Shown: positions 20,332-36,890, counted from the first letter of the stretch. The stretch is 64,000 nucleotides of DNA from a bacterium (GCA_963674965.2 CAXXFL010000005.1:736001-800000); one strand, 5' to 3'. Translations and numbers: made by a program. The notes: a model not told the origin generated them from the sequence alone.

Positions 20332-20432
20332 CGTGGCTCACAGGTATCATAAGGCGAAAATCTTGTCAAAGCATTAAGTAACGCCGATATAGATAAGCCG
20401 AGTCCGTTTACGAGCCGGCGTCGAGTCCGCGT

Positions 20433-21245
20433 CTATTTCTGGGCCGAGGCCATTCGGGCCAGGGCGGCTATGGGCCCGCCGGCCAGCTCGTGGCGGAACT
20501 CCTCGCCGAACTCGAAGCCCGCCTTTTTGCCGACCTCGGCGTCGTGGGACTTGACGTATATCTCGAGAAGCGGCTCGTAGTTTTCCCGGTCCAGTTGAGC
20601 GACCATCTCCTCGTCCGCGCCCGCCGCCAAAAGGGAGAGCCTTAAATCGTCCACGGTGAGCTTCATCTGGGAATCGTGCGCGCAAAGGGCCTCGATCTTT
20701 TTGCCGACGTATTTCGTGGTGTCGACTATTTTGTTGGCGTGGACCGGGTGCTTGGCGAAAAAATACTGCTCGCTCACGAGGTGGGGTTTGAGCCCTTCCT
20801 TTTCATGCTCGGGATGGAAAAGGGGAAAGTGGGAGAAGCCGATCGCCTCGACCGCCGCCATGGCGACCTGACGGTGGTCCTGATGTGACTCGAAGGGCGC
20901 CCAGGGGTCGAAGGTCATGACCGTCTTGGGCCTGTACGTCCTGATCAGCCGGATGAACTTCTCCCGCAACTCGTTCAAGGACACGTCGGCCAGGAAACCG
21001 TCGGGATAATCGAGGAAAACCACGTCCTTCTTCCCGATAATGCGCGCCGCCGCCCGGGCCTCGTCCCTGCTCTGGGGTATGATTTGATCGGGAGTCAGCT
21101 CGAAGGTCCCGCGCTCGTTGTTGGTGGCGATCACCTCGACCACCTCGCGGCCCTCGGCCGCCATTCTGGCGACGGTCCCGCCCGCCAGAAACTCCGTGTC
21201 GTCGGCGTGAGCCACGAGGATCAATACTCCGTTTTTAAGTTCCAT
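20433..21245 (-). CDS. PIG-L family deacetylase
   Basis: VAHADD, LDYPDG, HQDH, KIEAL.AHDSQ. Start reassigned to ATG 21245. Confidence 0.88.
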   Translation of the reverse strand: MELKNGVLILVAHADDTEFLAGGTVARMAAEGREVVEVIATNNERGTFELTPDQIIPQSRDEARAAARIIGKKDVVFLDYPDGFLADVSLNELREKFIRLIRTYRPKTVMTFDPWAPFESHQDHRQVAMAAVEAIGFSHFPLFHPEHEKEGLKPHLVSEQYFFAKHPVHANKIVDTTKYVGKKIEALCAHDSQMKLTVDDLRLSLLAAGADEEMVAQLDRENYEPLLEIYVKSHDAEVGKKAGFEFGEEFRHELAGGPIAALARMASAQK

Positions 21246-21276
21246 GGTTTTCCCCCTTTTTCGAGAAGGTAAATGG

Positions 21277-22809
21277 TTAGGGCGCGCCGGCCCTGGGCCT
21301 GATGGTAAGAGAGCCGTCCGGTCCCATGGGCAGCTCGACGAAGCCGTCCCTTTTAGTATAAGCGAAGACGCGGGCGCCGGTGAAGTCGAAGTCGGGCCGA
21401 GGCGAGAAGAGGTACTCCTTTCCCGCTCTCCGAATGTCGTAAGCCTGGCGGTCCACGAAAACGGGCAGGTCCGGATTCTCGTAAAGCGCCTTGATCCCGA
21501 AGTAGGAGGGGTCTCCATGGGTCCGTATGTCGGTGAGAAGTATGACCTTGGCCCAGGGCTCGAGGGCGGGATACCTCTTCTTCATGCCAAGGTGTATCTG
21601 GCGCGTGGCCCTGGCCGCGTTCATGATGAAGTCGTCGCGCATGTCGGCGCGGTGATTGTAGCCTCCGGCGACGAACAGAATAACCACGTATCCGAGCGCC
21701 AGCGCCCTCGCGGACTTTTGACCGAGCCTTGAGAGAAGATTGTCCAGGCCCAGCCCAACCGACCAGTAAACACCGATGGACGCGAGATGAATGTAATACG
21801 GGTATGAGCGCTTGGTAATGGGCAAAAACATGGACATGCCCAGGCCGAACCAAACCAGGCCGAGAAATACCGGGCGCGGAAAAGACCTCTTCTTGACCGC
21901 GGCCACCACGAGAGCGATCAGGGAAACCAGCGCGGCCAGAGTGTAAACGTACCAGTGATTCTCCCTGCCCAGGGGCGGGGACCCCAGCGAGACGAACAGG
22001 TCCGTCATGTACTCGTCGAAATGGCGAAACACGTGGGATCCCATAAGGCTCATCTCGTAGTCTCCGCCCCCGGGAGGAGGCATTAAGGAGAAGCGAAGGA
22101 CAAGGTATATAATCATGATCGCGTCAAAGGACGCGTGTCTCCAAAGCCTTTGCCGGATGATTTGGGAAACGCGCTTTCCGCCGGACATGCCCTTGGCCAG
22201 ATCGTAAATCCAAAGCCAGACGGGTATCCATATGGCCGACTCCTTGGCCAGAAGCGACGCGCCGTAAAGGAGGGAAGCCGCGGCCAATAGCCAGCCCCCG
22301 GAGCGCCCGCCGCTCTCCTCCTTTCGGTCATGACCAAGAAAAAGGATAACCGAGCCCAGGGCGAGAAGCGCGAGTCCCACTTCCTGAATGCCGGAGATAA
22401 AGGCGATGGGCAAAAAGTTGATGGGCGCCAGGGCGTAAATAAGGCCCGCCCAGGCGGCGGCCCGCTCGTTTCCCGTGATCGCGCGGGAAATTTTCATGAC
22501 CAGAAAAATACATCCCAGGTAGATGGCCATGTTGGCAAGATGGAAGGGGAGAGCGTTCAGGCCGAAGACCTCGTGCATGATCTTGAAGTAAACGTATTGA
22601 GTAAGGGGCCTGTAAAAGAGCCTTCCCTCCGCGGTGGGGTCGAAGGCCCAGCCGATGCCCCTGGTCATGGTCTTCTCGATGCACCACAGGTCGTCGGCCA
22701 CGAAGTAGACGAAGCAGACCGAGACGGTCAGCCCCAGCCAGGCCGCGATAGCGGCGGCCGCAAGGACCTTCGCGTCGGGCCGGGTCCGGCCGGCGTCGCC
22801 CGTTATCAT
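21277..22809 (-). CDS. Polytopic GT-C-like glycosyltransferase, paralog 2
   Basis: ADD, FYRPL, FH..N, LLAKESA, many TM segments. Confidence 0.7.
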   Translation of the reverse strand: MITGDAGRTRPDAKVLAAAAIAAWLGLTVSVCFVYFVADDLWCIEKTMTRGIGWAFDPTAEGRLFYRPLTQYVYFKIMHEVFGLNALPFHLANMAIYLGCIFLVMKISRAITGNERAAAWAGLIYALAPINFLPIAFISGIQEVGLALLALGSVILFLGHDRKEESGGRSGGWLLAAASLLYGASLLAKESAIWIPVWLWIYDLAKGMSGGKRVSQIIRQRLWRHASFDAIMIIYLVLRFSLMPPPGGGDYEMSLMGSHVFRHFDEYMTDLFVSLGSPPLGRENHWYVYTLAALVSLIALVVAAVKKRSFPRPVFLGLVWFGLGMSMFLPITKRSYPYYIHLASIGVYWSVGLGLDNLLSRLGQKSARALALGYVVILFVAGGYNHRADMRDDFIMNAARATRQIHLGMKKRYPALEPWAKVILLTDIRTHGDPSYFGIKALYENPDLPVFVDRQAYDIRRAGKEYLFSPRPDFDFTGARVFAYTKRDGFVELPMGPDGSLTIRPRAGAP

Positions 22810-24374
22810 TTCTCGTTCCCGCCGCTTTTATCGCCGTCGCGAAACACGGGGAAAAACATTGTGCCGTCGGGGCTGATCCGGCTTTCGGTCAGGCCGCCGT
22901 CCATGGCGTAGGAAAAGAACATGGCCCCCGTATAATTGAAGTCGTCCCTGACCAGGAACCGGATTTCGTTCTCCCGCTCCTCCACGATAAAAGCCTGCTC
23001 GTCGGAATAAACCCTGATCCTTGGGTCCCCGTACAAGGCCCTGACGCCGTAAAGGGCCGGATTCTTTCCCAGCCGAAGGTCGCTGGACATGATGATCCTC
23101 GAGCCAGGCTTAATGGACGGCCTCAGCTTCCGCATCTCCTGGTGCATGATCCGCGCGTGACGCGCCGCGGCCGCTATGTATTCGTTTTCCCGCTGCTCCC
23201 GGTCCCGGTATATTCCCTGGCCCAATATCAGCGCCGCGTACGCGACAAGGGCGAACAAGGCTGGAGTCTTGGCCAGCCGGGCCCTCGCCGCGGCCGCGAG
23301 GTATCCGGCGGTCCAGAAAAACCCCATGGAAGCGAAGGAGACGTAGTAAGGATATGACCGGCCTTTCAGAGGCAGAAAGACCAGAACGCCGAGCCCGAAC
23401 CAGGCAAGTCCCAAAAGGGCCTCCTGGGGAAAGGACCGGCGCTTGTAATAAAGCCAGGAGGAAAGTCCGGCAAGGCCAATGATAAATGCAAGGGCGTGAA
23501 TAAAGTCGTGGGCGCCGCGAGCCGTGCCGGGAACGCCAACCGCCATGAAGACGTCGTGGACGTAGTTGTCCAGGTTATGGACCGGATGGAGGCCGAAGAC
23601 GGACGCCGCGTAATCCTCGTTTGAGGGAGCGGGCAGCCAGATGATTCGGTAGGCGACGTAAAGCGCCAGGACGGCGTCGTAGGCAAGGTGCGTTTTCCAG
23701 ACCGACTTGATGGCGTCCAATAGCCCGGTCCCGTCCCGGCTCCTCGATTTCAAGTGATATATCCAGAGCCATGCGGGAAGCCAAAGGGCCGACTCCTTGG
23801 CCAAAAGAGATAATCCGAAAAAAAGGGGACCCAGGGCCGCCGCGATCCACCGTCTAGGGGCGCTCCCGTCCTCGCTTTTGATCCTCGCCAGAAAGCAAAG
23901 CGCGGCGGCGCAGGCGAGGGTCGTCATCATCACGTCCTGCACGCAGGAGACCCAGTAATAAATCCTGAAATTGAAGGGAGCGGCGACGAAGAACAAAAGG
24001 GCCCAGAGTGAGGCCTCGCGTCCGCGGGTTAATCTTTTCCCGATATGGTAGAAAAGGACCAGATTGAGTCCCGTCAAAAGAGCGTTGATCCCGTGAAAGC
24101 CCGGCGGGAAAAATCCGAAGAGCCTATAGGCGATCCTGAAATAAAGGTCGCGGCTGAGAGGCCTGAAAAATTCGTCGATCGGCCTGAACGGATTCAGCGC
24201 GTCGCCGAGCCTCACGTCCATAATCCGCTCGAGGAAAATGAAGTCGTCCGTGGCGAAGTACGTTCCCGCCGAGAAATAAACGATCATGGCAAAGAAGAGG
24301 GCAATGGCCGCCAAAAGAACGGCCAGGCCGGCCCTTGATTCCGTCGCCCCTTGAATTTCTTTCGCTTCTTCCAT
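22806..24374 (-). CDS. Polytopic GT-C-like glycosyltransferase, paralog 1 (alternative start 24422)
   Basis: TDDF, FFRPL, FH..N, LLAKESA; ATGA overlap with the next gene. Confidence 0.7.
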   Translation of the reverse strand: MEEAKEIQGATESRAGLAVLLAAIALFFAMIVYFSAGTYFATDDFIFLERIMDVRLGDALNPFRPIDEFFRPLSRDLYFRIAYRLFGFFPPGFHGINALLTGLNLVLFYHIGKRLTRGREASLWALLFFVAAPFNFRIYYWVSCVQDVMMTTLACAAALCFLARIKSEDGSAPRRWIAAALGPLFFGLSLLAKESALWLPAWLWIYHLKSRSRDGTGLLDAIKSVWKTHLAYDAVLALYVAYRIIWLPAPSNEDYAASVFGLHPVHNLDNYVHDVFMAVGVPGTARGAHDFIHALAFIIGLAGLSSWLYYKRRSFPQEALLGLAWFGLGVLVFLPLKGRSYPYYVSFASMGFFWTAGYLAAAARARLAKTPALFALVAYAALILGQGIYRDREQRENEYIAAAARHARIMHQEMRKLRPSIKPGSRIIMSSDLRLGKNPALYGVRALYGDPRIRVYSDEQAFIVEERENEIRFLVRDDFNYTGAMFFSYAMDGGLTESRISPDGTMFFPVFRDGDKSGGNEK

Positions 24375-24589
24375 AACCCGCTCTCGCCGGACGCGAACCC
24401 GCGCTCCGTCCGGACATGCCATAATATATCAACAAGCGCCGTCCGCATAAAGGAAGGGGAGCGTTTGGATTATGGCGGCGCTCGTGTCAGATTATACTTG
24501 GGGTTTACACGGGCGCCCGGGGCGTTGTAAACTTATGATTTAACGGGCGTAGAAAACCATCCAAGAAAAGAATTTTTCAGGAGGTATAA

Positions 24590-25459
24590 ATGGCTTTGTC
24601 AAGGGGCGCGCGCTGGGCGCTTGTTTTTCTAACGGGTCTTGTCTTTGCTACCACGCCCACGGTTTCGGACGAGACCAAGACCTATCGTCCCGAGGGCGCT
24701 CGGGGCGGAGTAATGGTGTCGGTGCCGGAGGGCGAGTACTACGTGGGTTGCAACCGCCGTCGTGACAGGCACTGCGACGCCGACGAAAACCCCTACCACA
24801 AGGTCAAGCTCGACGCCTATTATATAGACCAGTACGAGGTCACCATCGCCCAGTACCGGGAGTGCGTGGAGGAAAAGGTTTGCCGCGCTCCCAAGGAGTA
24901 CAGCGACTTTGACGCCGACGACCAGCCCGCGGTGGGGGTCTCATGGAACGACGCCACGACCTATTGCGAGTGGGCGGGCAAGCGTCTTCCCACCGAGGCG
25001 GAATGGGAGCAGGCGGCCCGTGGACCGGACGGGAACGTTTATCCCTGGGGAAACTATAACTGCGGCTGCGAGTGCGCGGTCCAGGAGGAAAGGCAACTTT
25101 ACGGGTGCGGCAAGGACTCGACCCTCCCGGTGGGGACCGCCAAAAAAGGACAAAGCCCTTACGGGACCTACGACCAGGCGGGAAACGTCTGGGAATGGGT
25201 GTACGACTGGTACGACCCCAAATACTTCGCGAACTCCGAGACGGAAAACCCGAAGGGACCAGAGACGGGAGAGAAGAAGGTCCGCAAGGGAGGAGGGTTC
25301 GCCAACGTGAAAAACTATCTTCGGACCTCGGACAGAAGCCCGGCGCCCCCGGAGATGCTGTCCAATTCCACCGGCTTCCGCTGCGCCAAGACGGCGCCAC
25401 CCGAGCCGGAGGAAAAGGCCGGGGAGATCGAGAAGCCAGAGGCCGGGGAAAACAAGTAG
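24590..25459 (+). CDS. FGE-sulfatase (SUMF1) domain secreted protein
   Basis: EVT.AQY, VSWNDA..YC.W.GKRLPTEAEWE.AARG, GNVWEW, GFRCA; signal peptide. Confidence 0.9.
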   Translation: MALSRGARWALVFLTGLVFATTPTVSDETKTYRPEGARGGVMVSVPEGEYYVGCNRRRDRHCDADENPYHKVKLDAYYIDQYEVTIAQYRECVEEKVCRAPKEYSDFDADDQPAVGVSWNDATTYCEWAGKRLPTEAEWEQAARGPDGNVYPWGNYNCGCECAVQEERQLYGCGKDSTLPVGTAKKGQSPYGTYDQAGNVWEWVYDWYDPKYFANSETENPKGPETGEKKVRKGGGFANVKNYLRTSDRSPAPPEMLSNSTGFRCAKTAPPEPEEKAGEIEKPEAGENK

Positions 25460-25497
25460 CGCGACATGAGCCGGCCGCGGGGCCGGGGGAGGAATAA

Positions 25498-26619
25498 ATG
25501 GAAGACGTCCTTCGACAATCGGCCGTTCTCCAAAACGAGCTCGTCAAGGGCTGGAAGGAGAAAGGCGGCAAAGTGGTGGGCTACACCTGCACGGCCACGC
25601 CCGTGGAGGTCCTCGAGGCCGCCGGCCTTCTGCCCTACCGGATAAGGGCCCTTGGGTCCTCCGAGACCGAGATGGCCGACGCCAGGCTCTCCCGGTTCAA
25701 CTGCAGCTTTTGCCGGTCATGTCTCCAACTCGGGTTGAACGGCTCCTACGACTTCCTCGACGGCATGATCGAGACCAACGGTTGCGACCACCTGCGGGGT
25801 ATGATCGAGAACTGGGAGCGGGCCAAGGGTTTCGGTTTTTTCCATTACCTCAAGGTCCCCCACGTGGTGGACGAGGACTCGATACCCTACTTCGTCGAGG
25901 AACTGCGCATTTACAAGAGGGCCGTCGAGGACCACTTCGACCAGGCCATCTCGGACGAGGCCTTATGGGACCGGATTCAAGCCCGGGACAGGATCGGCGG
26001 AAAGCTAAGGGCCATCTACGACCTGCGCGAGCGCGAGAAGCCGGGCATAACCGGGGCCGAGGCCCTGTCCGTTTTTTTGTGGGCCACGGCCGTTCCTTCC
26101 CAGGCCCTCGAGGATGCCCTTGACTCGATCATCGAGCAAAGGAAAGACCACCGGATCGAAAACTGCCGCGCCCGGCTTCTTCTCGGCGGGGCGGCCACGG
26201 ACGAGGTTGACTTCGTAAGGGAGATCGAGAGCCTGGGGGCCCTGGTGGTGACCGACGCCCTTTGCTACGGGGCCCGGGCCTTCATGCCAAGGATAGAATC
26301 CTCGCCCGGCGGCGACCCTTTTAAGGCCATGGCCGAGTCCTATTTCGAGAAGCTCCTTTGCCCCCGCATGTTCGACGACTTCGCCTCCCGCAGGGACTTC
26401 GTCTTCAAGGCGGTGAAGAGGGCAAAAGTCGACGGGGTGGTGCTCGTGCACAACAAGTTCTGCGACGTTCACGGAGTTGACAACGTGGCCCTCCGGATGG
26501 CCCTCGAGAAGGCGGGCGTGCCCGTGCTTCAGCTCGAGAAGGAATACGGGGCCAAGGCCGACCTGGGCAGGATGAGGACCAGGTTTCAGGCCTTCCTGGA
26601 AAGGATCGAGGGAGATTGA
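25498..26619 (+). CDS. 2-hydroxyacyl-CoA dehydratase / class I benzoyl-CoA reductase subunit (HgdB/BcrC-like)
   Basis: VGYTC..TP.E, CSFCRSC, NGCD, D.LCYG.R, CPR, KFCD.H, TR..AFLE. Confidence 0.85.
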   Translation: MEDVLRQSAVLQNELVKGWKEKGGKVVGYTCTATPVEVLEAAGLLPYRIRALGSSETEMADARLSRFNCSFCRSCLQLGLNGSYDFLDGMIETNGCDHLRGMIENWERAKGFGFFHYLKVPHVVDEDSIPYFVEELRIYKRAVEDHFDQAISDEALWDRIQARDRIGGKLRAIYDLREREKPGITGAEALSVFLWATAVPSQALEDALDSIIEQRKDHRIENCRARLLLGGAATDEVDFVREIESLGALVVTDALCYGARAFMPRIESSPGGDPFKAMAESYFEKLLCPRMFDDFASRRDFVFKAVKRAKVDGVVLVHNKFCDVHGVDNVALRMALEKAGVPVLQLEKEYGAKADLGRMRTRFQAFLERIEGD

Positions 26620-26621
26620 AT

Positions 26622-28052
26622 ATGGACGTGAAATCAAAAGGACTCGTCAATAGCCTGCTGCCTCGCCTGGCCGTGGCCCAGTACGTTCCCACTCCCATTC
26701 TGGCCAAGGCCGGTCCCTTGCTGGCGTCCCTCAAGATCGGGCCGCCCGCGATGCAGGCCGCGCTGTCCGGGCTCTTCAGCCCTCAAGCGGGAGAGGCCAC
26801 GGTCCCGTTTCTGAAAATGATATCGACCTGGGTCCTGAACGCCCGCAGGGCGGCCAAACAGGGCAAGAAGGTCTTCCTGGTGCCCTTCAACTTTCCCTGC
26901 GAGATTATCCACGCCTTCGAGGGGGCCGAGCCGCTTACCAGCGAGGTCCTTTCGACCTTCGGTGTGGTGGCCCTGCCCGAGCAGGGCGAGGAATACTGGG
27001 ACATGGCCATGGCCCTGGGACTTCCCGACCATATGTGCTCGGCCAACACCATCGAGCTTGGCTCGATGCTGGGCAGCGCGGACTTCAAACCCCAGGCCAT
27101 CATCTCGTCGGCCCCCGGCGGCTGCGACGTGAACTCGAAGATTCACGAGTTCGTGGCCCATTACCTGGACATACCGCACTTTTTCCTCCAGAAGCCCCCC
27201 GACGACGGCGGCCGGGGCCGGGCCCAGTACAACGTTTATATGCGCGGCCTCATCCGTCGCCTCGAGGACTTCATCGGGGAGAAGCTAAGTGAGGACCGGC
27301 TGAGGTCGGTTCTGACCAAGGCCAACAGGTGCACCGAGCTTTATTACGAGCTTTTCGACCTGCAAAAGGCCGTTCCCTGCCCGGTGCCGAATATTTTTTC
27401 GCTATTCCTTTACGGCGTAAGGTTCACCATGTGGGGGACGGACGAGGGAATCAAGGCGCTCGAGGCCATGGTCAAGGTCTCGCGGGAGCGCCTGGCCAGG
27501 AAGGCCTATCCGGCGGAGAAGGAGATAGCCCGCTGCGTCTGGGCCTACACCAGCTATTATTACGACCTTTACGGTCTTTTCGGGTGGATGGAGGAAAAGG
27601 GCTACTCCCATTTGGGGGACGGGCTCGACCTTTTCTTTCCCCGCATGGTTGATACGTCCAGTATGGACTCGATGATCGAGGGCCTGGCCGAGTCGGCCTG
27701 GAACATGCCCATGACCCGCCAGGTGGGCGCGGAGTCCATGTCCCGCTCCTGGACCGAGGACGTGATATGGGCGGCCCGGGAATTGAACGCCGACTGCGTG
27801 ATCTACTGCGGCCATCACTCGTGCAAGCAGACCTGGAGCGTGGTGTCCATTTTGCGCGAGGAGCTGATGGACAGGCTGGGCATGCCGATCCTGATATTGC
27901 AGGGAGACTCGTGGATCAAGCGCATGACGCCCATGAGCGTGCTCCAGGAGGAGATCGACGAGTTCGTCAAGAACGTGGTGGCCAAGAAGTCCACGCCCAA
28001 GCGCAGCCTTAAAAAACGCCGCCAAAAAAGGATGGAGGAGATGGACTCCTGA
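26622..28052 (+). CDS. 2-hydroxyacyl-CoA dehydratase / class I benzoyl-CoA reductase subunit (HgdA/BcrB-like)
   Basis: P.EI.HAF, HMCS, GCD..SK, HHSCKQ. Confidence 0.8.
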   Translation: MDVKSKGLVNSLLPRLAVAQYVPTPILAKAGPLLASLKIGPPAMQAALSGLFSPQAGEATVPFLKMISTWVLNARRAAKQGKKVFLVPFNFPCEIIHAFEGAEPLTSEVLSTFGVVALPEQGEEYWDMAMALGLPDHMCSANTIELGSMLGSADFKPQAIISSAPGGCDVNSKIHEFVAHYLDIPHFFLQKPPDDGGRGRAQYNVYMRGLIRRLEDFIGEKLSEDRLRSVLTKANRCTELYYELFDLQKAVPCPVPNIFSLFLYGVRFTMWGTDEGIKALEAMVKVSRERLARKAYPAEKEIARCVWAYTSYYYDLYGLFGWMEEKGYSHLGDGLDLFFPRMVDTSSMDSMIEGLAESAWNMPMTRQVGAESMSRSWTEDVIWAARELNADCVIYCGHHSCKQTWSVVSILREELMDRLGMPILILQGDSWIKRMTPMSVLQEEIDEFVKNVVAKKSTPKRSLKKRRQKRMEEMDS

Positions 28053-28086
28053 CGCGGCCGGAAGTAATCGAAAGGGAAAGTATCGC

Positions 28087-28875
28087 ATGTACGCTGGAAT
28101 AGACATCGGGTCTCTCACGGCCGAGGCCCTGCTGATAGGGGACGGCGGCATTGTCGGGCATGAGATAATGTCGGTCTTGCCCAACCCGGTTGACTCGGCG
28201 CGGGAGGTAATGGGCCGTCTGCTTAAAGGCAAGGGCCTTGACTGGAAGGACATTGAATATTCGGTCAGCACGGGCTACGGCCGGGAAAAAATCCAGAAGG
28301 AGGGGCTGGCCCAGGAGAACCTCTCCGAGATATCCTGCCACGGCTTCGGGGCCTTCAACCTGGACCGCCAGGTGAGAACGATCGTCGACATCGGGGGCCA
28401 GGACGCCAAGGTGATCAAGGTGGACGGGAAGGGCAAGCTCGAGAACTTCGTCATGAACGACAAGTGCGCCGCCGGCACGGGCCATTTTCTCGAGGCCATG
28501 AGCAGGGCTCTGGACGTGGGTCTCGCCGAGCTCGGCCCGCTGGCCCTGAGGTCGAAAAAGCCCCTCGAGATGAGCAACCGCTGCACCATCTACGTCGAGA
28601 CCGAGGTGATCCATTATCTGCAACGCGGGGCGGCCCGGGAGGACGTGGCGGCGGGCATCACCCAGGCCATGGCCGAGCGGGTGGTGTCCCTGGCCAAGCG
28701 GGTTGTCCCCCAGAACCGGGTGATGATCACTGGAGGAGTGGCCAAGAACGAGGCGGTGAAAAAGGCGCTCGAGCGGGCCCTGGGCATGGCCATAGTCTAT
28801 CCGGGCCTTGATCCCCAGCTTATCGGGGCTTACGGCGCGGCCGTTTTCGCTCGCGGGAAGGGAGGCGGGTCATGA
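28087..28875 (+). CDS. Acyl-CoA dehydratase activase (ASKHA ATPase, HgdC/BcrAD family)
   Basis: GIDIGS, TGYGR, EISCH, DIGGQDAK, MNDKCAAGTG, CT, TGGVAKN. Confidence 0.92.
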   Translation: MYAGIDIGSLTAEALLIGDGGIVGHEIMSVLPNPVDSAREVMGRLLKGKGLDWKDIEYSVSTGYGREKIQKEGLAQENLSEISCHGFGAFNLDRQVRTIVDIGGQDAKVIKVDGKGKLENFVMNDKCAAGTGHFLEAMSRALDVGLAELGPLALRSKKPLEMSNRCTIYVETEVIHYLQRGAAREDVAAGITQAMAERVVSLAKRVVPQNRVMITGGVAKNEAVKKALERALGMAIVYPGLDPQLIGAYGAAVFARGKGGGS

Positions 28876-29642
28876 TCACCCTTGGCCTCGATATCGGAAG
28901 CCTTTTCTCCAAGGCCGTCGTGCTCGACGGCGACGACATAATCGGCGAGAGGATGATTCCCACCACCGGCAACGTGGCCCGCGAAATCCCGACCCTCATG
29001 GCGGACGCGATCAAGGCCGCTGGACTTACTCGGGACCGGATCGAGTGCGTGGGCGCCACGGGCAACGGCCAGGACCTGGTCAAAGGCGCCGATTTTCGGG
29101 AGGACGTGGTGAACTGCGTGGGCGCGGCCGCCGGGTTCTACGTGCCCCAAGCCGCGTCAGTGATCGACGTGGGCGGCCAGAGTATAACCTCGATCGCCCT
29201 GGACGAGGACGGTGAGGTGGTGAATTTCATGCGCAACGACAAATGCGCCTCCGGCTCGGGCCGGTTCCTCGAGATGATGGCGGCCAAGCTGGGCGTCGGC
29301 ATCGGGGAAATCGACGCCGCCGTCCGCCGGTCCTCCCGGGTGGTCGGGATCAGCAGCCAGTGCGGGGTCTTCGCCGAGAGCGAGGTCATAACCCACGTGA
29401 ACAACGGCGAGGACAAAAACGACGTCATGGCCGGCGTCTGCGCGTCGGTGGCCAAGATGGTGAGCGCCCAGGGAAGGCGGTTCGGCTCGTCCGGCGTCTA
29501 TACCGTCACCGGCGGCGTGGCCAACCTGGACGCCGTGACCCGGATCGTGCATGAAAAGCTGGGCGGCGAGTTCCAGCGCTTCCCCTTTAATCCCCAGTTC
29601 GCCGCGGCCATCGGTGCGGCCCTGTTGGGCGACGCGGACTGA
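28872..29642 (+). CDS. Second, divergent activase ATPase subunit
   Basis: GLDIGS, DVGGQSIT, RNDKCASGSG, QCGVFAES, TGGVA. Confidence 0.88.
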   Translation: MITLGLDIGSLFSKAVVLDGDDIIGERMIPTTGNVAREIPTLMADAIKAAGLTRDRIECVGATGNGQDLVKGADFREDVVNCVGAAAGFYVPQAASVIDVGGQSITSIALDEDGEVVNFMRNDKCASGSGRFLEMMAAKLGVGIGEIDAAVRRSSRVVGISSQCGVFAESEVITHVNNGEDKNDVMAGVCASVAKMVSAQGRRFGSSGVYTVTGGVANLDAVTRIVHEKLGGEFQRFPFNPQFAAAIGAALLGDAD

Positions 29643-29643
29643 G

Positions 29644-30357
29644 ATGGGTCTTTTCGACTCTCCCTTTTCACGGGTCCGGGACTTCATCCGGGAAAAAGAG
29701 GGGTCCGGCGAGCTAGTCCGACTTGAAATGGACGGCCGTCGCTCATGGCCCCGCGGCCAGGAACTGATCCTCGAGGACGAGACCGCCCTCGAATTGGGCC
29801 ATCCCGAAAAAGGGTCACTTTTTTTCCTCGCCTGGACGGAGAACGCCTCGGGTGAGGATGAAGTCATGCTGGTGGGACCGGACCTGCAAAAGATACCGGA
29901 CCGAAGCGCTCCCTTTGCCCTGGCCGTCCTCGTGAGCGGGCAATTCGAGGACGAGTACGACTGCTTCCGCGACCTGCGGGACGAGGTCTTCGATACCAGG
30001 CTGAGGGGCATGGCCTCGCGGGTCATGCCCAGCAGGCAAACCATATGGACGAGGGTCAAGCGGGACGCCCTGGAAAATGGAATGTCCCTTGCCCACCTTG
30101 GCGCGGCCATCATTGACAATCTCAGGGATTTCGAGTTCGTAAGCCGCGTCCAAACGCTGTTCGTTACCTCGGCCAAGGAGGACGTGGAGAAACTGGCGCC
30201 GGCGGCCCTCGAGTCGGACCGCATAGCCCGGGCCATGATCAAGATGACCGAGGAAATGAGCTACGACTGCGAGTCCTGCGAGTTTAGCGACGTATGTGAA
30301 GACGTGGCCGAACTGAAGCGCATACGCGCCAGGCTTGGAAAAGAGGGGCCGGCGTGA
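29644..30357 (+). CDS. Truncated acetyl-CoA synthase (AcsB/CdhC) middle-domain-like protein with C-terminal CxxCx5C
   Basis: ELG..., DEV.LVGPDL, PFA..VLVSG, IWTRV.RDALE.G.SL.HLG, VSRVQ..FVT, DCESCEFSDVC. Start ATG 29644. Confidence 0.7.
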   Translation: MGLFDSPFSRVRDFIREKEGSGELVRLEMDGRRSWPRGQELILEDETALELGHPEKGSLFFLAWTENASGEDEVMLVGPDLQKIPDRSAPFALAVLVSGQFEDEYDCFRDLRDEVFDTRLRGMASRVMPSRQTIWTRVKRDALENGMSLAHLGAAIIDNLRDFEFVSRVQTLFVTSAKEDVEKLAPAALESDRIARAMIKMTEEMSYDCESCEFSDVCEDVAELKRIRARLGKEGPA

Positions 30358-31109
30358 GGCGGACGGTGGTGGGCGTCTGCGGCAAGGGCGGCGTGGGCAA
30401 GACCACGGTCTCGGCCATTCTTGCCGCCGAGCTGGGACGGCGAAAGGAATACAAGTCGCTCGTGATCGACGCGGACCACGCGGCGGGACTTACCATGGCC
30501 CTGGCTTTAAATCCGGAGAGCACCATCAACCGGGCGCGCTCCGAGACCATCGCCGAGATCAAAGAGAAGCGGATGGACAAGAGCGAGTTGGCCATGGGTC
30601 TTGATTATCTTCTTTCCCGGGCCTTGGCCGAGCGGGACAACCTGGCGTTCCTTTCTCTGGGCCGCCCGGAGGAGGTGGGGTGTTATTGCTCGGTCAACTC
30701 ACTATTGCGGGAGGCCATCGAGGTCCTGGCCGGGGGTTTCGACTACGTGCTCATTGACGCCGAGGCCGGCATCGAGCAGGTCAACAGGAAGGTCATGAAG
30801 TCGGTAGATTACCTCCTTCTGGTTTCCGATTCCTCGGCCAAGGCGGTGCGGGTGGCCGAGACCATCCGGGAGGTGGCCGCCGGGACCGCGGGCCAGGGGA
30901 GGGCCGGGCTCCTGATCAACCGGATTAAGGACGAAAGCGAAGTCGCGGAGATTGCCGGGACCACTCGCCTCGAGGTGATCGGGTGGGTCCCCGAGGACGA
31001 GACGGTCAGGCGCCACGATTTCAAAAACCTTTCCTTTTTCGACCTGCCTTCCTGTCCGGCCTCCGAGGCGGTCATAGGCGCTCTAACCGGGGCGGGAGTA
31101 CTGGACTGA
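30354..31109 (+). CDS. cooC: CooC/AcsF-type nickel-insertion ATPase
   Basis: GKGGVGKTT, IDAD, GCYC.VN, DAEAGIEQ. Confidence 0.85.
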   Translation: MRRTVVGVCGKGGVGKTTVSAILAAELGRRKEYKSLVIDADHAAGLTMALALNPESTINRARSETIAEIKEKRMDKSELAMGLDYLLSRALAERDNLAFLSLGRPEEVGCYCSVNSLLREAIEVLAGGFDYVLIDAEAGIEQVNRKVMKSVDYLLLVSDSSAKAVRVAETIREVAAGTAGQGRAGLLINRIKDESEVAEIAGTTRLEVIGWVPEDETVRRHDFKNLSFFDLPSCPASEAVIGALTGAGVLD

Positions 31110-31125
31110 AGCGGACACGACTTTA

Positions 31126-32310
31126 TTATCCGATCCTGCCGTTTTCCGCCGGGCCGTAGAGGTTTTCGAACTCGCGTCGGCGCCCGTCTTCATCGACGGC
31201 GAAGCCCTCCAGCCGTCCGCATTTCTGGTAATACTTGAAAGGAAGGGGAGCCAGGTTCACCATCTTGCCGCCCTCGGGCGTGAAGCGCGCCTCGAGGCGT
31301 CCCGAGTTTTCGCGAAGCGTCCATGGCTTGTCCGGCGACCTCGGATCGTGGTCCCATTTGACCGCGTCCAGGAAGGAAATCTTTCCGTCTATCCAGAGGC
31401 AGTTCTCGTTCCAATACTCCTGGTCCCGAGCGTAATAGTCCACGGCGTTAAAGGCGATGGACCTTCCCTCGAGGGTCTTGCCCTCGCCCGTTCCCCAGGT
31501 CCACCTTCTCGGAATGGGCCAGAAGGCCCTGAACTCATCGAGGATCGCGAAGCGCTCATCGGCCGAGTACTCGACCTCCTCGCCTCCCACCCGGACGCGG
31601 CCATCAATGCCCATGACCGTTTTATGCGTGTAGATGTAATGGCGCGGATACAAGGGCATGCTGACCACCAGGGGCTGGAAGCTCTTCAGGTCCTGTTTGA
31701 GCTCGAGATCCATCTGCAGGGAGGGTTTGTTTTTCCCCGCGGGCATTTCGATATTTATCCGGTGGAGTCCATGGTCCAGGTCGTGAATGAACTCCAGGTG
31801 GAAGTTCTTTTGGGAGGAGTAGGTGCGGCCGTTCCACAGGGTCTCGGGAACGCCCGAGTTGCTCGAGTTTCCAACCGCGTCGTACGAGAAGTTATCGCCC
31901 GAGTCCATATCCAGGGCGTAGACGCTCGAGACGGACGCGGCCTTCAGGTCCATCATAATCATACCGAAGTACCATCTGGGGTGGGCAAAGCCGAAGCCGA
32001 CCCACTCCTGGAGACGGGGCCCTCCCCACCAGCGGCGCGGACCGCCCTTGAAGAGGTTAGCCTCAAGCAGGTTCACCTTCCGGCAGGGCTCGCGGAAGAG
32101 CCCGAGCCTGAGACGTCCGCCGGTCGATATCTCGGAGGGGGCGTCCTCGAGGGCGCGGGGGCCGTCCGGGTACCAGGGCGGCTTAACGTACAGGTCGTCA
32201 AAGCCCTCCCACTCGTTCGCGCCAAGGGACCGGGAAGGCGGGCAAAGGGTTGCCGCCGACAATGCTCCCCCCTCGATGACCGCCCTTCTTCTATCTATTT
32301 GCCTGGTCAA
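31126..32310 (-). CDS. DUF2804 family protein with possible Tat signal
   Basis: YTHK, D..R.FWP....WTWG, NENCLWIDG, PW......GRL...FTP; N-terminal DRRRAVI. Confidence 0.7.
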   Translation of the reverse strand: MTRQIDRRRAVIEGGALSAATLCPPSRSLGANEWEGFDDLYVKPPWYPDGPRALEDAPSEISTGGRLRLGLFREPCRKVNLLEANLFKGGPRRWWGGPRLQEWVGFGFAHPRWYFGMIMMDLKAASVSSVYALDMDSGDNFSYDAVGNSSNSGVPETLWNGRTYSSQKNFHLEFIHDLDHGLHRINIEMPAGKNKPSLQMDLELKQDLKSFQPLVVSMPLYPRHYIYTHKTVMGIDGRVRVGGEEVEYSADERFAILDEFRAFWPIPRRWTWGTGEGKTLEGRSIAFNAVDYYARDQEYWNENCLWIDGKISFLDAVKWDHDPRSPDKPWTLRENSGRLEARFTPEGGKMVNLAPLPFKYYQKCGRLEGFAVDEDGRRREFENLYGPAENGRIG

Positions 32311-32313
32311 TTT

Positions 32314-33177
32314 TCATTCCTCTCTTCCATCCTCGTTATGACCGGTATTTTTATGGTTCGAGCGTCCAATCCACCGTCCGGGCGCTCGGTAGGCGTCCCT
32401 GGCGAAGAGGGCCGCTCCCAGGGCGCCGATGAGCTGGGGGTCCATGGGTAGGGGCTTGAACCTCGTTTCCAACTCCTTCTCCAGAAGCTCGACCATGGCC
32501 CGGTTCTTACTCACGCCGCCCGTCATGCAGACTTTTTCCCTTACCCCCACCCTGCCGGTAAGGGCCTTGATCCTTTTGACCAGCGATTGATGCACTCCGG
32601 CGGCCACGTGCTTTTTCTTCTTGCCCGAGTAGATAAGCTGAGTCACCTCGACCTCGGCGAAAATGGTGCATTGCGAGCTGAGGACAAGGGGCCGTCGCGA
32701 CTTCCGGGCCAGGTCGCCGAGCTCCGATACCTCGATGCCCAGGGTGCGGGCCATCATCTCGAGGAACCTGCCCGTGCCGGCGGCGCACTTGTCGTTCATG
32801 GCGAAGTCCTCGAGGGAGCCGTCGCTATCCACCCGGATGACCTTGCAGTCCTGTCCTCCCACGTCGATGATGGTGCGGACGTCAGGCGCCAGGCTATGGG
32901 CGCCTCTCCCGTGACATGATATCTCCGAGACGTTGCGGCGGGAAAAGGGAATCGAGTCCCTGCCGTAGCCCGTGGAGAAGCAAAGAGTGACGGCGTCCTC
33001 CATAAGGTTGGCCCGGGCCAGGGCCTTGTGGAAGACCTCGCGGGCCGACTGCTCGGCCCGGGGACGGACCCGGATGATCTCTCCCGCCAGCGAGGCTCCG
33101 CTCTCGTCGATAAGCGCGCACTCGGCGGTAAGGGACCCCACGTCGATCCCGGCGAATATGGGCGATGACTGGCTCAA
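32314..33177 (-). CDS. Third acyl-CoA dehydratase activase
   Basis: GIDVGS, TGYGR, EISCH, DVGGQDCK, MNDKCAAGTG, CTIFAE, TGGV.KN. Confidence 0.9.
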   Translation of the reverse strand: MSQSSPIFAGIDVGSLTAECALIDESGASLAGEIIRVRPRAEQSAREVFHKALARANLMEDAVTLCFSTGYGRDSIPFSRRNVSEISCHGRGAHSLAPDVRTIIDVGGQDCKVIRVDSDGSLEDFAMNDKCAAGTGRFLEMMARTLGIEVSELGDLARKSRRPLVLSSQCTIFAEVEVTQLIYSGKKKKHVAAGVHQSLVKRIKALTGRVGVREKVCMTGGVSKNRAMVELLEKELETRFKPLPMDPQLIGALGAALFARDAYRAPGRWIGRSNHKNTGHNEDGREE

Positions 33178-33277
33178 GCGAGTACCCGCGCCGCGACATA
33201 TTATCGCGAGCTATTGTAAAGTATAATCCGGGGGCCGGTGGAGCGGCAAATTAGGAGGGAGTCGGTGGAGGTCCGGC

Positions 33278-33763
33278 TCAGTCGTCGCCTCTCGATATCG
33301 AGACGTCAAGCCCTCTTTTTTCGGCGAAGCTCACGAGCGCGTCGTGATGGGCGTGGTCGAATTTCTGCAGGTTCTTTACCAGGACGGAAAGCTCCGGGTT
33401 GGACTTTTCGAGGACGGTGCGGTAAAGGGACTCGGCGGCGCTGATCTCGAAAAACACCGCCGCCTGCAGTGCCCCTTCCAGACCATAACAGTCGCTCTCG
33501 ATGAGGATTTTATCGCCGTGAACCAGGAGTTGTATGATCTCGTTCAGGTCGGCTTCCACGTCCTTGTATTGTTTTCTGTCCTTGACGATCACGCGGAGCT
33601 GGAACTGGACCATCTCGAGATGGGCCGCCTCTTCGCGGGCCATGCCCCGGAAAAAAGCGGCCGCTTCCCGGTCGTCCCCGGCGCACCCGGCGAAGGCCTC
33701 GTATATCTTCATCATTTTCATCTCGATTTGTTCGAGATAGTTTAAAATCGTAAGCACGTTCAA
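33278..33763 (-). CDS. Ferritin-like / rubrerythrin family protein
   Basis: E......Y, MAREEAAH, second E, DxxH. Confidence 0.7.
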   Translation of the reverse strand: MNVLTILNYLEQIEMKMMKIYEAFAGCAGDDREAAAFFRGMAREEAAHLEMVQFQLRVIVKDRKQYKDVEADLNEIIQLLVHGDKILIESDCYGLEGALQAAVFFEISAAESLYRTVLEKSNPELSVLVKNLQKFDHAHHDALVSFAEKRGLDVSISRGDD

Positions 33764-34030
33764 TATGGTATCTCCTCGCGAACAAGGATGAGGATAGAAT
33801 GTATGGGCCGTCTTTACAATGGCGGGGCCTGATTTTCCAATCTCAAGGTATCGCGTCGGGCATGTTTTTTTCGAAAATTCTTCTCGCCCGATTGGCCGCG
33901 AGAAACGATTTGGGCTAAAATAGCATCTAACTATCCGCTATGGTTTCAAATTCCATGGCGTTAAATCCGGGACCTTCCGGCGCGTTCGTTATTATTCTGC
34001 ATCGGTTCCGGTTTTAAACTGGGGGAGGTA

Positions 34031-35530
34031 ATGGACGGCGAAGACACGGCCGCCCGGGCCGAGGAGATATCCGCCGAGGAAGCGCGCCGACTGGCGAGCC
34101 TGAAAAAGGACTGGCTCGCCGGGCTGGAGATGCGGGAAAAAAACCGCGTTCTTTTCGAGTTGGAGATACTTCTCAAGGGCATGGATCGCTTTTTCAACGT
34201 TTCCAATTTGCCCCTTACCAACATGGAGAAGGTAATCACCTTCAATTTCGTGGACGAGCTCGAGATAGTCCTTAAATTCGTGGACCGGGTGGTCGAGCTG
34301 TCCGGGCTTTTACTCGAGGCCAGCCGGCGCGAGGACTACCAGTTCCGGCAATACGTCGAGACCAGGCTTCTTCGGGATTACGAGCGCTCGCGCTGGCTGC
34401 AGACGGCCCTTTCCCAGCGGAGCCCCGAGGACAGCCTGTTCGTCCTTTACTCGACCTTTTTGAACCTTCGGGAGATCGTCCGGGGAATGATCGGCCTCAA
34501 GTCCGTCTCTTACACCCTTTTCTTTAACGTGGGCAACCTCATCACCAGGGAGATGATATCCAACAGGTTCTTCAGTCCCTCCCGCATGATCGAGTTCAAG
34601 CCCGAGTACGACAAGATGGCCAACCGCCGGATAGGCCACGTCATCCGCTCGATAGGAGACCCGGACCTGACCCGGCTGGCGTCGATCGTGGTGCTGGCCT
34701 TCAACCGGCTTCTTCAGTATCTCGAGTTCATTGACCCCCGCGCCGAGACGGTCGAGACCCTTAAAAGCTCGCTGCTTTTTTTCGCCCTTATCCATTCGGA
34801 GAGCAAGTATCTTATCGAGTACCTTGACAACTCCCTTCCCTTGGAGATCAAATCTTCATCCCACCGGCTGGCCGGCAAGTTCGCCGAGACCTGCGACTCC
34901 CTCAGCTTCCAGCTTCAAATGGAACTGAGGAAAATCCACTCGGGCGAGCTTATGAACCTCAGCAAGGACAGGAAGTTTTCCTCGGTCAAGACGGCGGTCG
35001 AGAACAGCCACGGTATCCTTAAAAACTTTTTGCAGCAAAGCATCATCCATCTTCTCAAGACTTTCGACGAGGCCCTCGAGGGGGAGTCCATATATCCGGA
35101 GTTCGTCTCGCGCAAGAAGCAGAGTTTAAAGCTTCGCGAGGACCTGGCCGTGTTATGCTCGCTTATGGAAAAGTACGAGGAAATAATCGAGACCACCGAG
35201 GCGGGCATGAACCTGGAAACTTACCAGCAATACCTGGAGTTGCAAAAGGGATGGATCGGACGCATGCGAGGCAAATCCATACCCCTTATGCGCCACCAGG
35301 ACCTGGTCGAGTACGAGAAATATTTCCGCTACGTGGAGGACCTGAAACTGGACGACCTTCACCTGATGGACAAGCTGGACGGCTTCAAGATGGAGTCGAA
35401 GTTTTTCAAGATACTGGTCGAGACCACCCTGGGCCAGATCAACAACCGGACCGACCTGCGCGAGGACCCTCTCGACGAGGACCGGGTCGAGGCGGTCCTG
35501 AAAAAATTCATCGGCGAGCGGACAACATAG
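34031..35530 (+). CDS. Hypothetical all-helical protein
   Basis: 499-aa ORF with GGAGG RBS and host-like codon usage; no recognised motif. Confidence 0.8.
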   Translation: MDGEDTAARAEEISAEEARRLASLKKDWLAGLEMREKNRVLFELEILLKGMDRFFNVSNLPLTNMEKVITFNFVDELEIVLKFVDRVVELSGLLLEASRREDYQFRQYVETRLLRDYERSRWLQTALSQRSPEDSLFVLYSTFLNLREIVRGMIGLKSVSYTLFFNVGNLITREMISNRFFSPSRMIEFKPEYDKMANRRIGHVIRSIGDPDLTRLASIVVLAFNRLLQYLEFIDPRAETVETLKSSLLFFALIHSESKYLIEYLDNSLPLEIKSSSHRLAGKFAETCDSLSFQLQMELRKIHSGELMNLSKDRKFSSVKTAVENSHGILKNFLQQSIIHLLKTFDEALEGESIYPEFVSRKKQSLKLREDLAVLCSLMEKYEEIIETTEAGMNLETYQQYLELQKGWIGRMRGKSIPLMRHQDLVEYEKYFRYVEDLKLDDLHLMDKLDGFKMESKFFKILVETTLGQINNRTDLREDPLDEDRVEAVLKKFIGERTT

Positions 35531-35600
35531 CGTTGTAATCACCTGCCGGTCCTAGCCGGGCCGGCGGCGGGGGATCGTTCGACTTTTGATGGGAGGAGTA

Positions 35601-36890
35601 ATGCATAAACGTTCGGAGGAGCTTTTCGAGCGGGCGAGTTCGATATTGGTTGGAGGGGTCAACAGTCCCGTGCGCGCTTTCCGGGGGGTGGGCGGCTCCC
35701 CCGTGTTCATGTCCAGGGGAGGAGGCAGCCACGTCGAGGACGAGGACGGCAACTCCTACGTGGATTACGTTTTATCTTGGGGCCCGCTGATTCTCGGCCA
35801 CGCCCATCCGGCGGTGGTCGACGCGGTTATCGGGGCCGTTCGGGCGGGCTCGAGCTTCGGGGCTCCCACCCTGCGCGAGATAGAGCTGGCGGAGATGGTA
35901 AGGAGCTATTACCCCTCCCTGGAAAAGCTTCGTTTCGTCAGTTCGGGCACGGAGGCCTGCATGGGGGCGGTCCGGGCGGCGAGGGGCTTCACGGGTCGGG
36001 ATAAGATCATCAAGTTCGAGGGATGTTATCACGGCCACGCCGATTACCTTCTGGCCAAGGCCGGTTCGGGGGCCACGACGCTTGGCCGGCCCGACTCGAG
36101 GGGAGTGCCCGCCTCCTTTACCGAGCACACGATTATCGTTCCCTATAACGACGTCAAGGCGGTCGAGCGCGCCTTTGCCGAGCACGGGCCGGACCTGGCC
36201 GCGGTCATCGTCGAGCCGGTGGCGGGAAACATGGGGCTTATACTTCCCGAGCCGGGGTTTTTGGACTCACTGCGCAACCTTTGCACGCATTTCGACTCGG
36301 TGCTTATTTTCGACGAGGTATTAGTGGGTTTCAGGATAAAGGACGGGGCGCAAGGTCACTATAAAGTGAGGCCCGACCTTACCTGCCTGGGCAAGGTCAT
36401 CGGTGGAGGTTTTCCCGTCGGCTGTTATGGGGGTAAAAAGGAAATCATGAGCCGCGTGGCGCCCGAGGGTCCGGTGTACCAGGCGGGAACTCTTTCCGGC
36501 AATCCCGTCGCCATGGCCGCCGGATTGGCCACCCTCGAGGAACTTGGCAAAGAAGGCGTATTTGGAGACCTCGAGAACCGCACTCGGTCACTGGTGGCGG
36601 CCCTGCGAAAAGAAGCGGAGAGTCTCGGGGAGTCGGTCTCGATAGTAAGCGTTGGGAGCCTCTTTTGCGTATTCTTCGCGGACAAGGCCCCGATAAATTA
36701 CGGCGAGGCCACGGGAACGGACTCCCAGCGCTACGGGCGCTTTTTCCACTCCATGCTGAAAAGGGGCATATACCTGGCCCCGTCGGCATTCGAGTCCGCC
36801 TTTATGAGCACGGCCCATTCATACAAGGACATAGATAAAACGGCGCGGGCCTTCAGGGAGTCCCTGCAAGAAAGCGCCGGCGGGAAATGA
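35601..36890 (+). CDS. hemL: Glutamate-1-semialdehyde 2,1-aminomutase
   Basis: GGVNSPVRAF, SSGTEA, FEGCYHGH, FDEV..GFR, LGKVIGGG, YQAGTLSGNP. Confidence 0.97.
   Translation: MHKRSEELFERASSILVGGVNSPVRAFRGVGGSPVFMSRGGGSHVEDEDGNSYVDYVLSWGPLILGHAHPAVVDAVIGAVRAGSSFGAPTLREIELAEMVRSYYPSLEKLRFVSSGTEACMGAVRAARGFTGRDKIIKFEGCYHGHADYLLAKAGSGATTLGRPDSRGVPASFTEHTIIVPYNDVKAVERAFAEHGPDLAAVIVEPVAGNMGLILPEPGFLDSLRNLCTHFDSVLIFDEVLVGFRIKDGAQGHYKVRPDLTCLGKVIGGGFPVGCYGGKKEIMSRVAPEGPVYQAGTLSGNPVAMAAGLATLEELGKEGVFGDLENRTRSLVAALRKEAESLGESVSIVSVGSLFCVFFADKAPINYGEATGTDSQRYGRFFHSMLKRGIYLAPSAFESAFMSTAHSYKDIDKTARAFRESLQESAGGK

Follow-up and report, generated by a model that had tools for sequence, protein, structure and literature searches.

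Class I benzoyl-CoA reductases (BCRs) and their relatives perform some of biology's hardest reductions, and to our knowledge four subunits and ordinary Fe-S assembly suffice for the forms known so far. A 64,000-nucleotide stretch of bacterial DNA (GCA_963674965.2, CAXXFL010000005.1:736001-800000; hereafter the window, with positions counted from its first letter) raises the question of why four genes of this kind are followed, within 25498-31109, by a fragment of acetyl-CoA synthase (ACS), termed mini-ACS, and by a CooC/AcsF-type ATPase. We find that this six-gene unit is a member of an undescribed yet widespread variant of a known enzyme kind, and we propose with moderate confidence that it encodes a class-I-BCR-like enzyme that acts on a CoA thioester and has mini-ACS and the CooC-type ATPase as obligate partners.

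All six open reading frames (ORFs) lie on the plus strand, separated by 1-34 bp or overlapping by 4 bp. Read directly from the sequence, the junctions are in order a TTGA overlap, a 34-bp gap, an ATGA overlap, a 1-bp gap and a GTGA overlap; the second gene starts with TTG, and use of its alternative ATG at 26622 would turn the first junction into a start 2 nt past the preceding stop. One operon is the best explanation for this arrangement. A first-pass annotation of the stretch had listed six tightly spaced genes for an HgdB-like and an HgdA-like protein (the beta and alpha subunits below), two different ASKHA activases, a protein resembling the ACS middle domain and a CooC with an intact GCYC motif; all six ORFs are present, each with a strong family match (Table 1), and the two activases are indeed different, being 31% identical to one another.

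The association extends well beyond this genome. A scan of one genome per species, in which neighbours were matched by tblastn with the window proteins, yielded 34 mini-ACS loci (loci carry L numbers below) from Deltaproteobacteria-labelled metagenome-assembled genomes (MAGs), Actinomycetota, Bacillota/Dethiobacteria and Archaeoglobi. A CooC gene directly follows mini-ACS in 32 of the 34, and the contigs of the other two end within 220 bp. An orthologue of ATPase 2 stands directly ahead of mini-ACS in 27/34 loci, and beta, alpha (one to three copies) and ATPase genes occur in the same order in 19/34, while 7/34 are cut by contig ends. Both ATPases were matched in 20/34 loci and are two distinct genes in each. 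Within the window's phylum, all 13 species examined have a mini-ACS-family gene, and the six-gene order recurs in eight loci as far as the contigs reach, some of which, having contigs of equal length, may duplicate members of the 34; synteny was also seen in five further Bacillota-class loci.

The same tie appears when whole genomes are counted. Among 96 genomes of the class of G017 (Archaeoglobi locus L032), 8 carry both mini-ACS and alpha, 1 carries mini-ACS only, none carries alpha only and 87 carry neither; the 9 genomes with mini-ACS score 169-189 bits, the 8 with alpha were called at E <= 1e-60, and six hits of about 75 bits in 468-543-aa frames were excluded as true CdhC. In the lone genome with mini-ACS only (G108), the gene lies 771 bp from the contig start. 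Among 149 genomes of the class of G015 (Bacillota locus L027), mini-ACS was found in 14 and alpha in 13: both in 12, mini-ACS only in 2, alpha only in 1 and neither in 134. When the two classes are pooled (245 genomes), 20 have both, 4 have one only and 221 have neither, a pattern that ties mini-ACS to the alpha clade and not to ACS or to anaerobiosis in general. The co-occurrence of the ACS-like and cooC genes with these subunits in other genomes, on which the first-pass annotation had staked its proposal, is thus borne out by synteny and, for mini-ACS and alpha, by genome counts. A role for mini-ACS as an accessory of the Wood-Ljungdahl pathway was considered and is weakened, as only 9/96 genomes in the class of G017 have the gene, those with alpha (G108 aside). 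Replacement of RACo was rejected, RACo being present in 12/13 genomes of the phylum and, in this genome, beside the ACS region. A full ACS was found in 5/5 mini-ACS genomes checked and in 10/13 genomes of the phylum, counting one 554-aa frame.

Table 1. Coordinates of the six genes and of motifs within their products
Feature	Position	Strand	Basis
BzdN-like (beta) subunit, 373 aa, predicted [8Fe-9S] double-cubane carrier	25498..26619	+	PF06050 HGD-D, E 3e-78
Divergent alpha (catalytic-type) subunit, 478 aa	26616..28052	+	PF06050 HGD-D, E 6e-47
ASKHA activase ATPase 1, 262 aa	28087..28875	+	PF01869 BcrAD_BadFG, E 2e-54
ASKHA activase ATPase 2, 256 aa, distinct paralogue	28872..29642	+	PF01869 BcrAD_BadFG, E 1e-42
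Mini-ACS, 237 aa: ACS A2 (CoA-binding) domain and C-terminal CxxCx5C	29644..30357	+	CdhC/PF03598, 39.9 bits
W135-T-R137 of mini-ACS, aligned with Trp405-x-Arg407 of C. autoethanogenum ACS	30046..30054	+	Alignments
CESCEFSDVC of mini-ACS: three invariant Cys, C209, C212 and C218	30268..30297	+	Alignment, translation
CooC/AcsF-type P-loop ATPase, 251 aa, GTG start	30354..31109	+	GKGGVGKT, GCYC
C110-Y-C112 metal-binding motif of the CooC-type ATPase	30681..30689	+	CooC1 3kje alignment

What kind of enzyme do the four core genes encode? Compared with solved structures, the beta subunit scores highest with BzdN (8s02_B, 166 bits, E 1e-47), followed by HadC (111 bits), MbdN (78 bits) and the double-cubane cluster protein (DCCP; 70 bits). 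In the accessible text of the Bzd structural study, the [8Fe-9S] double cubane of BzdN is held by Cys36/73/100/263/293/327 (PMC11971306). All six ligands are matched in the alignment by C31/C69/C96/C256/C288/C322 of the window's beta subunit, each of which is invariant in 13 orthologues.

The alpha subunit is more divergent, its sequence finding solely DCCP in the PDB (E 4e-6). Its model (predicted local distance difference test score, pLDDT, 79.4) nevertheless matches HadB (3o3o_A), BzdO (8s02_A) and MbdO (9g87_A) with a probability of 1.00 each, the best Foldseek match being HadB (E 7e-15; template modelling score 0.83 on the target). C141, C170 and C403 are invariant in 17 sequences with a mean column identity of 62% across bacteria and archaea, and three is also the number of Cys that hold the active-site [4Fe-4S] cluster in BzdO and HadB. 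Identities of 43-67% between the alpha subunits of the aligned lineages suggest a single conserved substrate in strict anaerobes. Its C-terminal poly-basic tail is likewise conserved (KKxRRRRR in most orthologues, KKSTPKRSLKKRRQKR here). A GLFDR motif near the alpha N-terminus (GLVNS here) resembles the MGLFD start of mini-ACS, a likeness that could be chance.

Both ATPases score highest against HadI, HgdC and MbdQ (for ATPase 1, 199, 186 and 183 bits, respectively), and ATPase 1 matches TIGR00241 with 236 bits. C127 and C166 of ATPase 1 are invariant in 18 orthologues and C125 and C164 of ATPase 2 in 27, at what we take to be the positions of the bridging-cluster ligands of HgdC. ATPase 2 has two further Cys (C82 and C190) that are also invariant in the 27; ATPase 1 has no such extras.

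The core thus shares with the Bzd/Mbd class I BCRs (BzdNOPQ of Aromatoleum sp. CIB, 8S02; MbdONPQ, 9G87/9GAI) the four-part layout, a six-Cys BzdN-like subunit, an alpha with the fold of BzdO and HadB in which three Cys are conserved, and a pair of dissimilar ASKHA ATPases that each conserve two Cys. It departs from them in its very divergent alpha, in the Asn that motif spacing alone puts at the position of BzdO His131, and in its scores and genome context. The core proteins of the window miss every NCBIfam equivalog cut-off by a wide margin: bzdN 165 vs 453.8 bits, bzdO 27.5 vs 448.6 (matched by the beta subunit only), bzdQ 204 vs 380 (ATPase 1), HadC 130 vs 700, HadB 28.5 vs 750, and double_cubane (NF040772) 172 and 38 vs 350, of which 172 bits is the beta subunit's best NCBIfam score. 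The genome (6.5 Mb, 7 contigs, 97.6% complete) has no BzdN above cut-off, and its best match to the ring-opening hydrolase Oah (TIGR03200) reaches 96 vs 464 bits; as far as these searches tell, it is without the canonical benzoyl-CoA lower pathway. Placed relative to HgdAB, HadBC, BcrBC, BzdNO and DCCP by profile and PDB scores in place of a tree, the core appears to be built like a class I (Bzd-type) BCR, yet by membership it is not a benzoyl-CoA reductase.

Could it then be an ordinary BCR or 2-hydroxyacyl-CoA dehydratase, with the ACS-like and CooC genes as unrelated neighbours? All four core proteins do belong to this superfamily: HadB (HadBC/HadI, 3O3M/4EHT) is the best fold match of alpha, the ATPases score top with HadI and HgdC (of HgdAB/HgdC), and acyl-CoA dehydrogenase genes, known as neighbours in dehydratase operons, occur near the module, though in lineages other than that of the window. 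The beta subunit, however, is closer by score to BzdN than to HadC and keeps all six double-cubane Cys, whereas in dehydratases, according to the accessible text of PMC11971306, what this subunit holds is a [4Fe-5S] remnant. The dehydratases also use one homodimeric activator, whereas two distinct ATPase genes are found here; and no CoA-transferase gene is present in the cluster, which has mini-ACS instead. The separation from characterised dehydratases that the first-pass annotation had called for is therefore evident at the level of scores. Neither of the two grounds that the annotation gave for rejecting its proposal, an ATP-driven low-potential electron-transfer complex for a CoA ester with a Ni/Fe-S accessory subunit, was borne out, and the proposal is supported. 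DCCP with its reductase DCCP-R (6ENO, 7YZM) is a further ATP-driven reductase system of the same family, but DCCP pairs two identical subunits that each carry a double cubane, whereas here only beta has six Cys and alpha has three. Given these differences, the large shortfalls from the bzdN, HadC, bzdQ and Oah models, and the recurrence of the mini-ACS and CooC neighbours across domains of life, the ordinary-enzyme explanation has become highly improbable and is largely refuted.

We turn to the two additional proteins, which the Bzd paper, in its accessible text, does not mention (PMC11971306). The open frame of the fifth gene reaches back to 29551, and the conserved start, common to relatives, is the ATG at 29644 (MGLFD). 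Its product exceeds the gathering cut-off of PF03598 (24 bits) and scores 42 vs 356 bits with NCBIfam cdhC. A profile of 34 family members matches only ACS chains in the PDB (Moorella 333-498, CdhC 17-192), and the model (pLDDT 92.8, predicted template modelling score 0.90) gives 23 Foldseek matches at E <= 0.001, the best at 4e-10 and the next beyond them at 0.09; among the 19 of these 23 that were listed, all are ACS or CODH/ACS chains (CODH, carbon monoxide dehydrogenase). A protein atlas search likewise returned only clusters named 'CO-methylating acetyl-CoA synthase family protein'. The earlier identification of an ACS middle domain is thereby upheld, and the family is not small, with 226 clusters at 50% identity (E <= 1e-30); no fusion proteins were found in the best 150 of the 226, all of which stand alone. 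An apparent 467-aa frame joining ATPase 2 and mini-ACS in L035 was rejected, a stop lying between the two genes.

Positions invariant in all 34 mini-ACS sequences are M1, G2, F4, E50-L51-G52, G78-P79, W135, R137 and C209-x2-C212-x5-C218. In the genome's own full ACS, the counterpart of YDC209ESC212E in the alignment is YSCTLCQ, with which the A-cluster motif begins, so that mini-ACS shares with ACS (AcsB/CdhC) the A2 fold and the first Cys-x2-Cys of that motif. A complete A-cluster site comprises four Cys for the cubane and Cys-Gly-Cys for Ni, in the A3 domain. Mini-ACS, unlike ACS, has neither A1 nor A3 domain, ends 19 residues past C218 and has three Cys without the Cys-Gly-Cys Ni site, as we know that ligand set; it is also linked to BCR-type genes, whereas ACS is linked to CODH or a corrinoid protein. 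The name 'mini acetyl-CoA synthase' in the first-pass annotation was therefore apt for the A2 domain but overstated: lacking the rest of the A-cluster site, the protein is not a synthase. A residue that may serve to hold CoA is retained, W135 being the aligned equivalent of C. autoethanogenum Trp405, which, in the accessible text of bioRxiv 10.1101/2024.08.05.606187, stacks on the adenine of acetyl-CoA, with CoA binding mainly to A2.

The CooC-type ATPase has CooC1 (3kje, E 8e-13) as its best solved relative, with the CYC motif aligned. The deviant Walker A motif GKGGVGKT with its signature Lys is present together with CxC in the form GCYC, as first annotated, and the pattern GRPE..GCYC..N is retained in 24/25 orthologues. 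Mini-ACS followed by such an ATPase mirrors the ACS-AcsF pair, and the gene adjoins mini-ACS here, not CODH or ACS. Its product is 40-61% identical to cluster-linked CooC proteins of related loci (43-47% in 5/6 Archaeoglobi loci), compared with 34% to the CooC that accompanies the full ACS of the same genome and 41% to a third CooC whose gene surroundings are unrelated. By these identities it represents a dedicated lineage, which presumably serves ATP-dependent metal delivery.

CooC-type ATPases are maturases. An assembly or repair device, in which mini-ACS and CooC would form a scaffold for a cluster passed on to the reductase, such as the double cubane, is consistent with this and with CooC1 as the best PDB match; with the Actinomycetota in which a mini-ACS-CooC pair lies apart from dispersed alpha/beta sets, as a shared service factor might; and with the presence of one mini-ACS for one to three alpha paralogues per locus. 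A scaffold, however, has no obvious need of a CoA-stacking Trp that is invariant in 34 sequences. BzdNO made in E. coli, moreover, acquired the [8Fe-9S] cluster with no helper of this kind, as given in the accessible text of PMC11971306, and we consider the device unlikely.

Mini-ACS might instead be a dedicated electron carrier that feeds the ATPases in place of the ferredoxin genes of bcr and bzd clusters. Pfam and NCBIfam searches found no ferredoxin gene within the six-gene unit, and three Cys are enough to bind a [4Fe-4S] or [3Fe-4S] cluster. The adjacency of ATPase and mini-ACS is the second most constant of the 34-locus set and recurs in four loci as a third ATPase next to a second mini-ACS (below), and the reduced loci L013, L014, L018 and L022 keep just ATPase2-miniACS-CooC. 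Against this, a plain Fe-S carrier is not expected to need a CooC-type maturase or the CoA-binding fold of ACS, and in L070 the gene that comes right after CooC encodes a separate 4Fe-4S protein; such a carrier role seems to us decidedly unlikely.

Clues to the substrate come from other lineages. Two acyl-CoA dehydrogenase-like genes and a gene for an all-helical protein lie directly ahead of beta in Archaeoglobi (L032-L035) and Bacillota (L070, L071, L073); one such dehydrogenase-like gene and the helical protein were found in Actinomycetota loci L066 and L069, and L072 and L074 show the same upstream pattern as judged by ORF size only. For one dehydrogenase, the Bacillota and Archaeoglobi versions share 58% identity. 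The helical family (427-602 aa; L032:2677-3960, L066:14300-15943, L069:1939-3729, L070:3639-5174 and others) shows signs of internal repeats and had no match in Pfam and PDB searches. An AMP-binding, acyl-CoA synthetase-type gene lies nearby in Actinomycetota loci. Because of the dehydrogenase neighbours and the retained CoA-stacking Trp, some CoA thioester is favoured as the substrate.

In the mechanism that we propose, the two activase ATPases would take an electron from a low-potential donor, and ATP hydrolysis would drive it onto the [8Fe-9S] double cubane that the BzdN-like subunit carries and onward to the three-Cys [4Fe-4S] active site of alpha; alpha would then reduce, or radically dehydrate, the CoA thioester. 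The A2 surface of mini-ACS would bind the CoA moiety and present the thioester end to its three-Cys metal site, which the CooC/AcsF-type ATPase presumably loads with nickel and/or Fe-S. Most likely, mini-ACS would hold the CoA part of the substrate, or exchange an acyl group, beside that site. A bolder version, which we hold to be rather unlikely, assigns it a chemical role: Ni or a Ni-Fe-S centre loaded by CooC at the mini-ACS Cys would form or cleave the bond between the acyl group and the CoA sulfur through organonickel chemistry like that of the A-cluster, and the acyl group would be handed to, or received from, the double-cubane enzyme in its ATP-driven super-reduced state. The mini-ACS centre would then lie at the point to which bound CoA directs its thioester sulfur in true ACS. 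A predicted complex of ATPase 1, ATPase 2 and mini-ACS scored 0.00, which says nothing either way.

Several points weigh against the proposal of a BCR-like enzyme with obligate mini-ACS and CooC partners. What the data show directly are the domains, the cluster ligands, the synteny and the co-occurrence; that the products form a complex is inferred, as are the metal, the substrate and the direction of the reaction. Nickel is suggested only by the CooC family and its CxC signature; the related loci showed neither a Ni transporter nor a further Ni chaperone, and five loci that were checked had no His-rich ORF. Only three Cys of mini-ACS match the A-cluster set as we know it, and with three Cys and an end so soon after C218, mini-ACS alone could not form an ACS-like Ni-Ni site. 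In the accessible text of PMC11971306, the BzdO active site consists of three Cys on a [4Fe-4S]-OH2 cluster with Glu65 and His131 as acid/base; C128-x-x-H131 of BzdO corresponds to C170-D-V-N173 of alpha by motif spacing only, and with Asn at the His131 position the chemistry may differ from a Birch-type mechanism. This genome lacks the dehydrogenase neighbours, tblastn reaching 21-27% identity at best, and gave no tblastn match to the helical protein, so the module here is a bare six-gene core. Adjacency is not universal either: eight of the 34 loci, all from Actinomycetota, have only (ATPase2-)mini-ACS-CooC and no HGD-D genes nearby. In 5/5 of these that were searched as whole genomes, three to six strong alpha orthologues (at least 520 bits) are encoded elsewhere, for instance within beta-alpha-ATPase1-ATPase2-alpha sets (L066, L069). 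Finally, the cut that separates mini-ACS from CdhC (169 vs 78 bits) was chosen after the scores were known, and the co-occurrence tables overstate independence, as kin share genes and MAGs are incomplete.

The partnership is not confined to one gene family. The genome encodes a second mini-ACS (contig C5:144249-145028, 259 aa) that is 28% identical to that of the window, retains CxxCx5C and W-x-R without the MGLFD start, and directly follows a GMC-type flavin adenine dinucleotide (FAD) oxidoreductase gene (C5:142673-145028 for the pair; L038:6673-9028). At six loci of related genomes (L060-L065) this paralogue is clustered with further beta/alpha pairs of the HGD-D type, one activase and the same oxidoreductase, in some cases joined by a CooC. 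A second mini-ACS in a second HGD-D cluster implies that the partnership arose or persisted twice, in two gene families. Convergent to the operon, at 32314-33177 on the minus strand, the window also encodes a third activase (BcrAD_BadFG, 287 aa; TIGR00241, 246 bits), an orthologue (42-46% identity) of the one activase found next to that paralogue in the related genomes; it probably belongs to this paralogous system, whose parts would be scattered in the present genome. HGD-D matches total 12 in the genome, which points to several further BCR- or dehydratase-type enzymes besides the two that are linked to mini-ACS.

The surroundings of the operon are of other kinds. Among 48 window ORFs scanned, there are no CODH, corrinoid or aromatic/benzoate-pathway genes, in agreement with the first-pass annotation, and the rest of the window encodes, among others, flagellar proteins, glycosyltransferases, Trk and sulfatases. 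On another contig, however, the genome has a complete CODH/ACS region that includes a separate CooC and RACo. A gene for an FGE-sulfatase-domain protein (24590-25459, plus strand, 289 aa, 10 Cys) stops 38 bp ahead of the operon and is absent from beside the cluster in every related locus examined. In a promoter scan the sole upstream sigma-70-like site (24504-24533) lies ahead of this gene, which is weak evidence, and no riboswitch or other RNA family was found in 20000-36000. Convergent to the operon lies a DUF2804 protein gene (31126-32310, minus strand), and three big ORFs (510, 538 and 499 aa), in 21277-24422 on the minus strand and at 34031-35530 on the plus strand, have no Pfam or NCBIfam match. 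In Actinomycetota, a recurring set precedes mini-ACS-CooC: a 4Fe-4S protein, a 678-aa protein, PrcB_C, an FAD amine-oxidase-type enzyme and AIM24 (e.g. L013:1433-2962, L017:3627-5297, L012:717-1718), present with or without local BCR-type genes.

A full-text literature search found no description of an association between mini-ACS/CooC and BCR-type enzymes, and the accessible text of a DCCP review does not mention it (PMC7317905); a 'CdhC-like' passage in the accessible text of PMC13370988 concerns an ACS lacking the prismane domain. What is added here is the match to the BzdN ligands, the CoA-stacking Trp, the co-occurrence tables, the second system, and the dehydrogenase and helical neighbours. 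A clade in bacteria and archaea that has joined an ACS relic and a nickel-chaperone-type ATPase to such an enzyme points either to a Ni-dependent step so far unrecognised in this family or to CoA thioesters being bound or activated in a new manner. If the organonickel reading were true, this would be a second use of ACS chemistry, outside the Wood-Ljungdahl pathway, and one tied to an electron-injection device more reducing than any other known in the BCR family.

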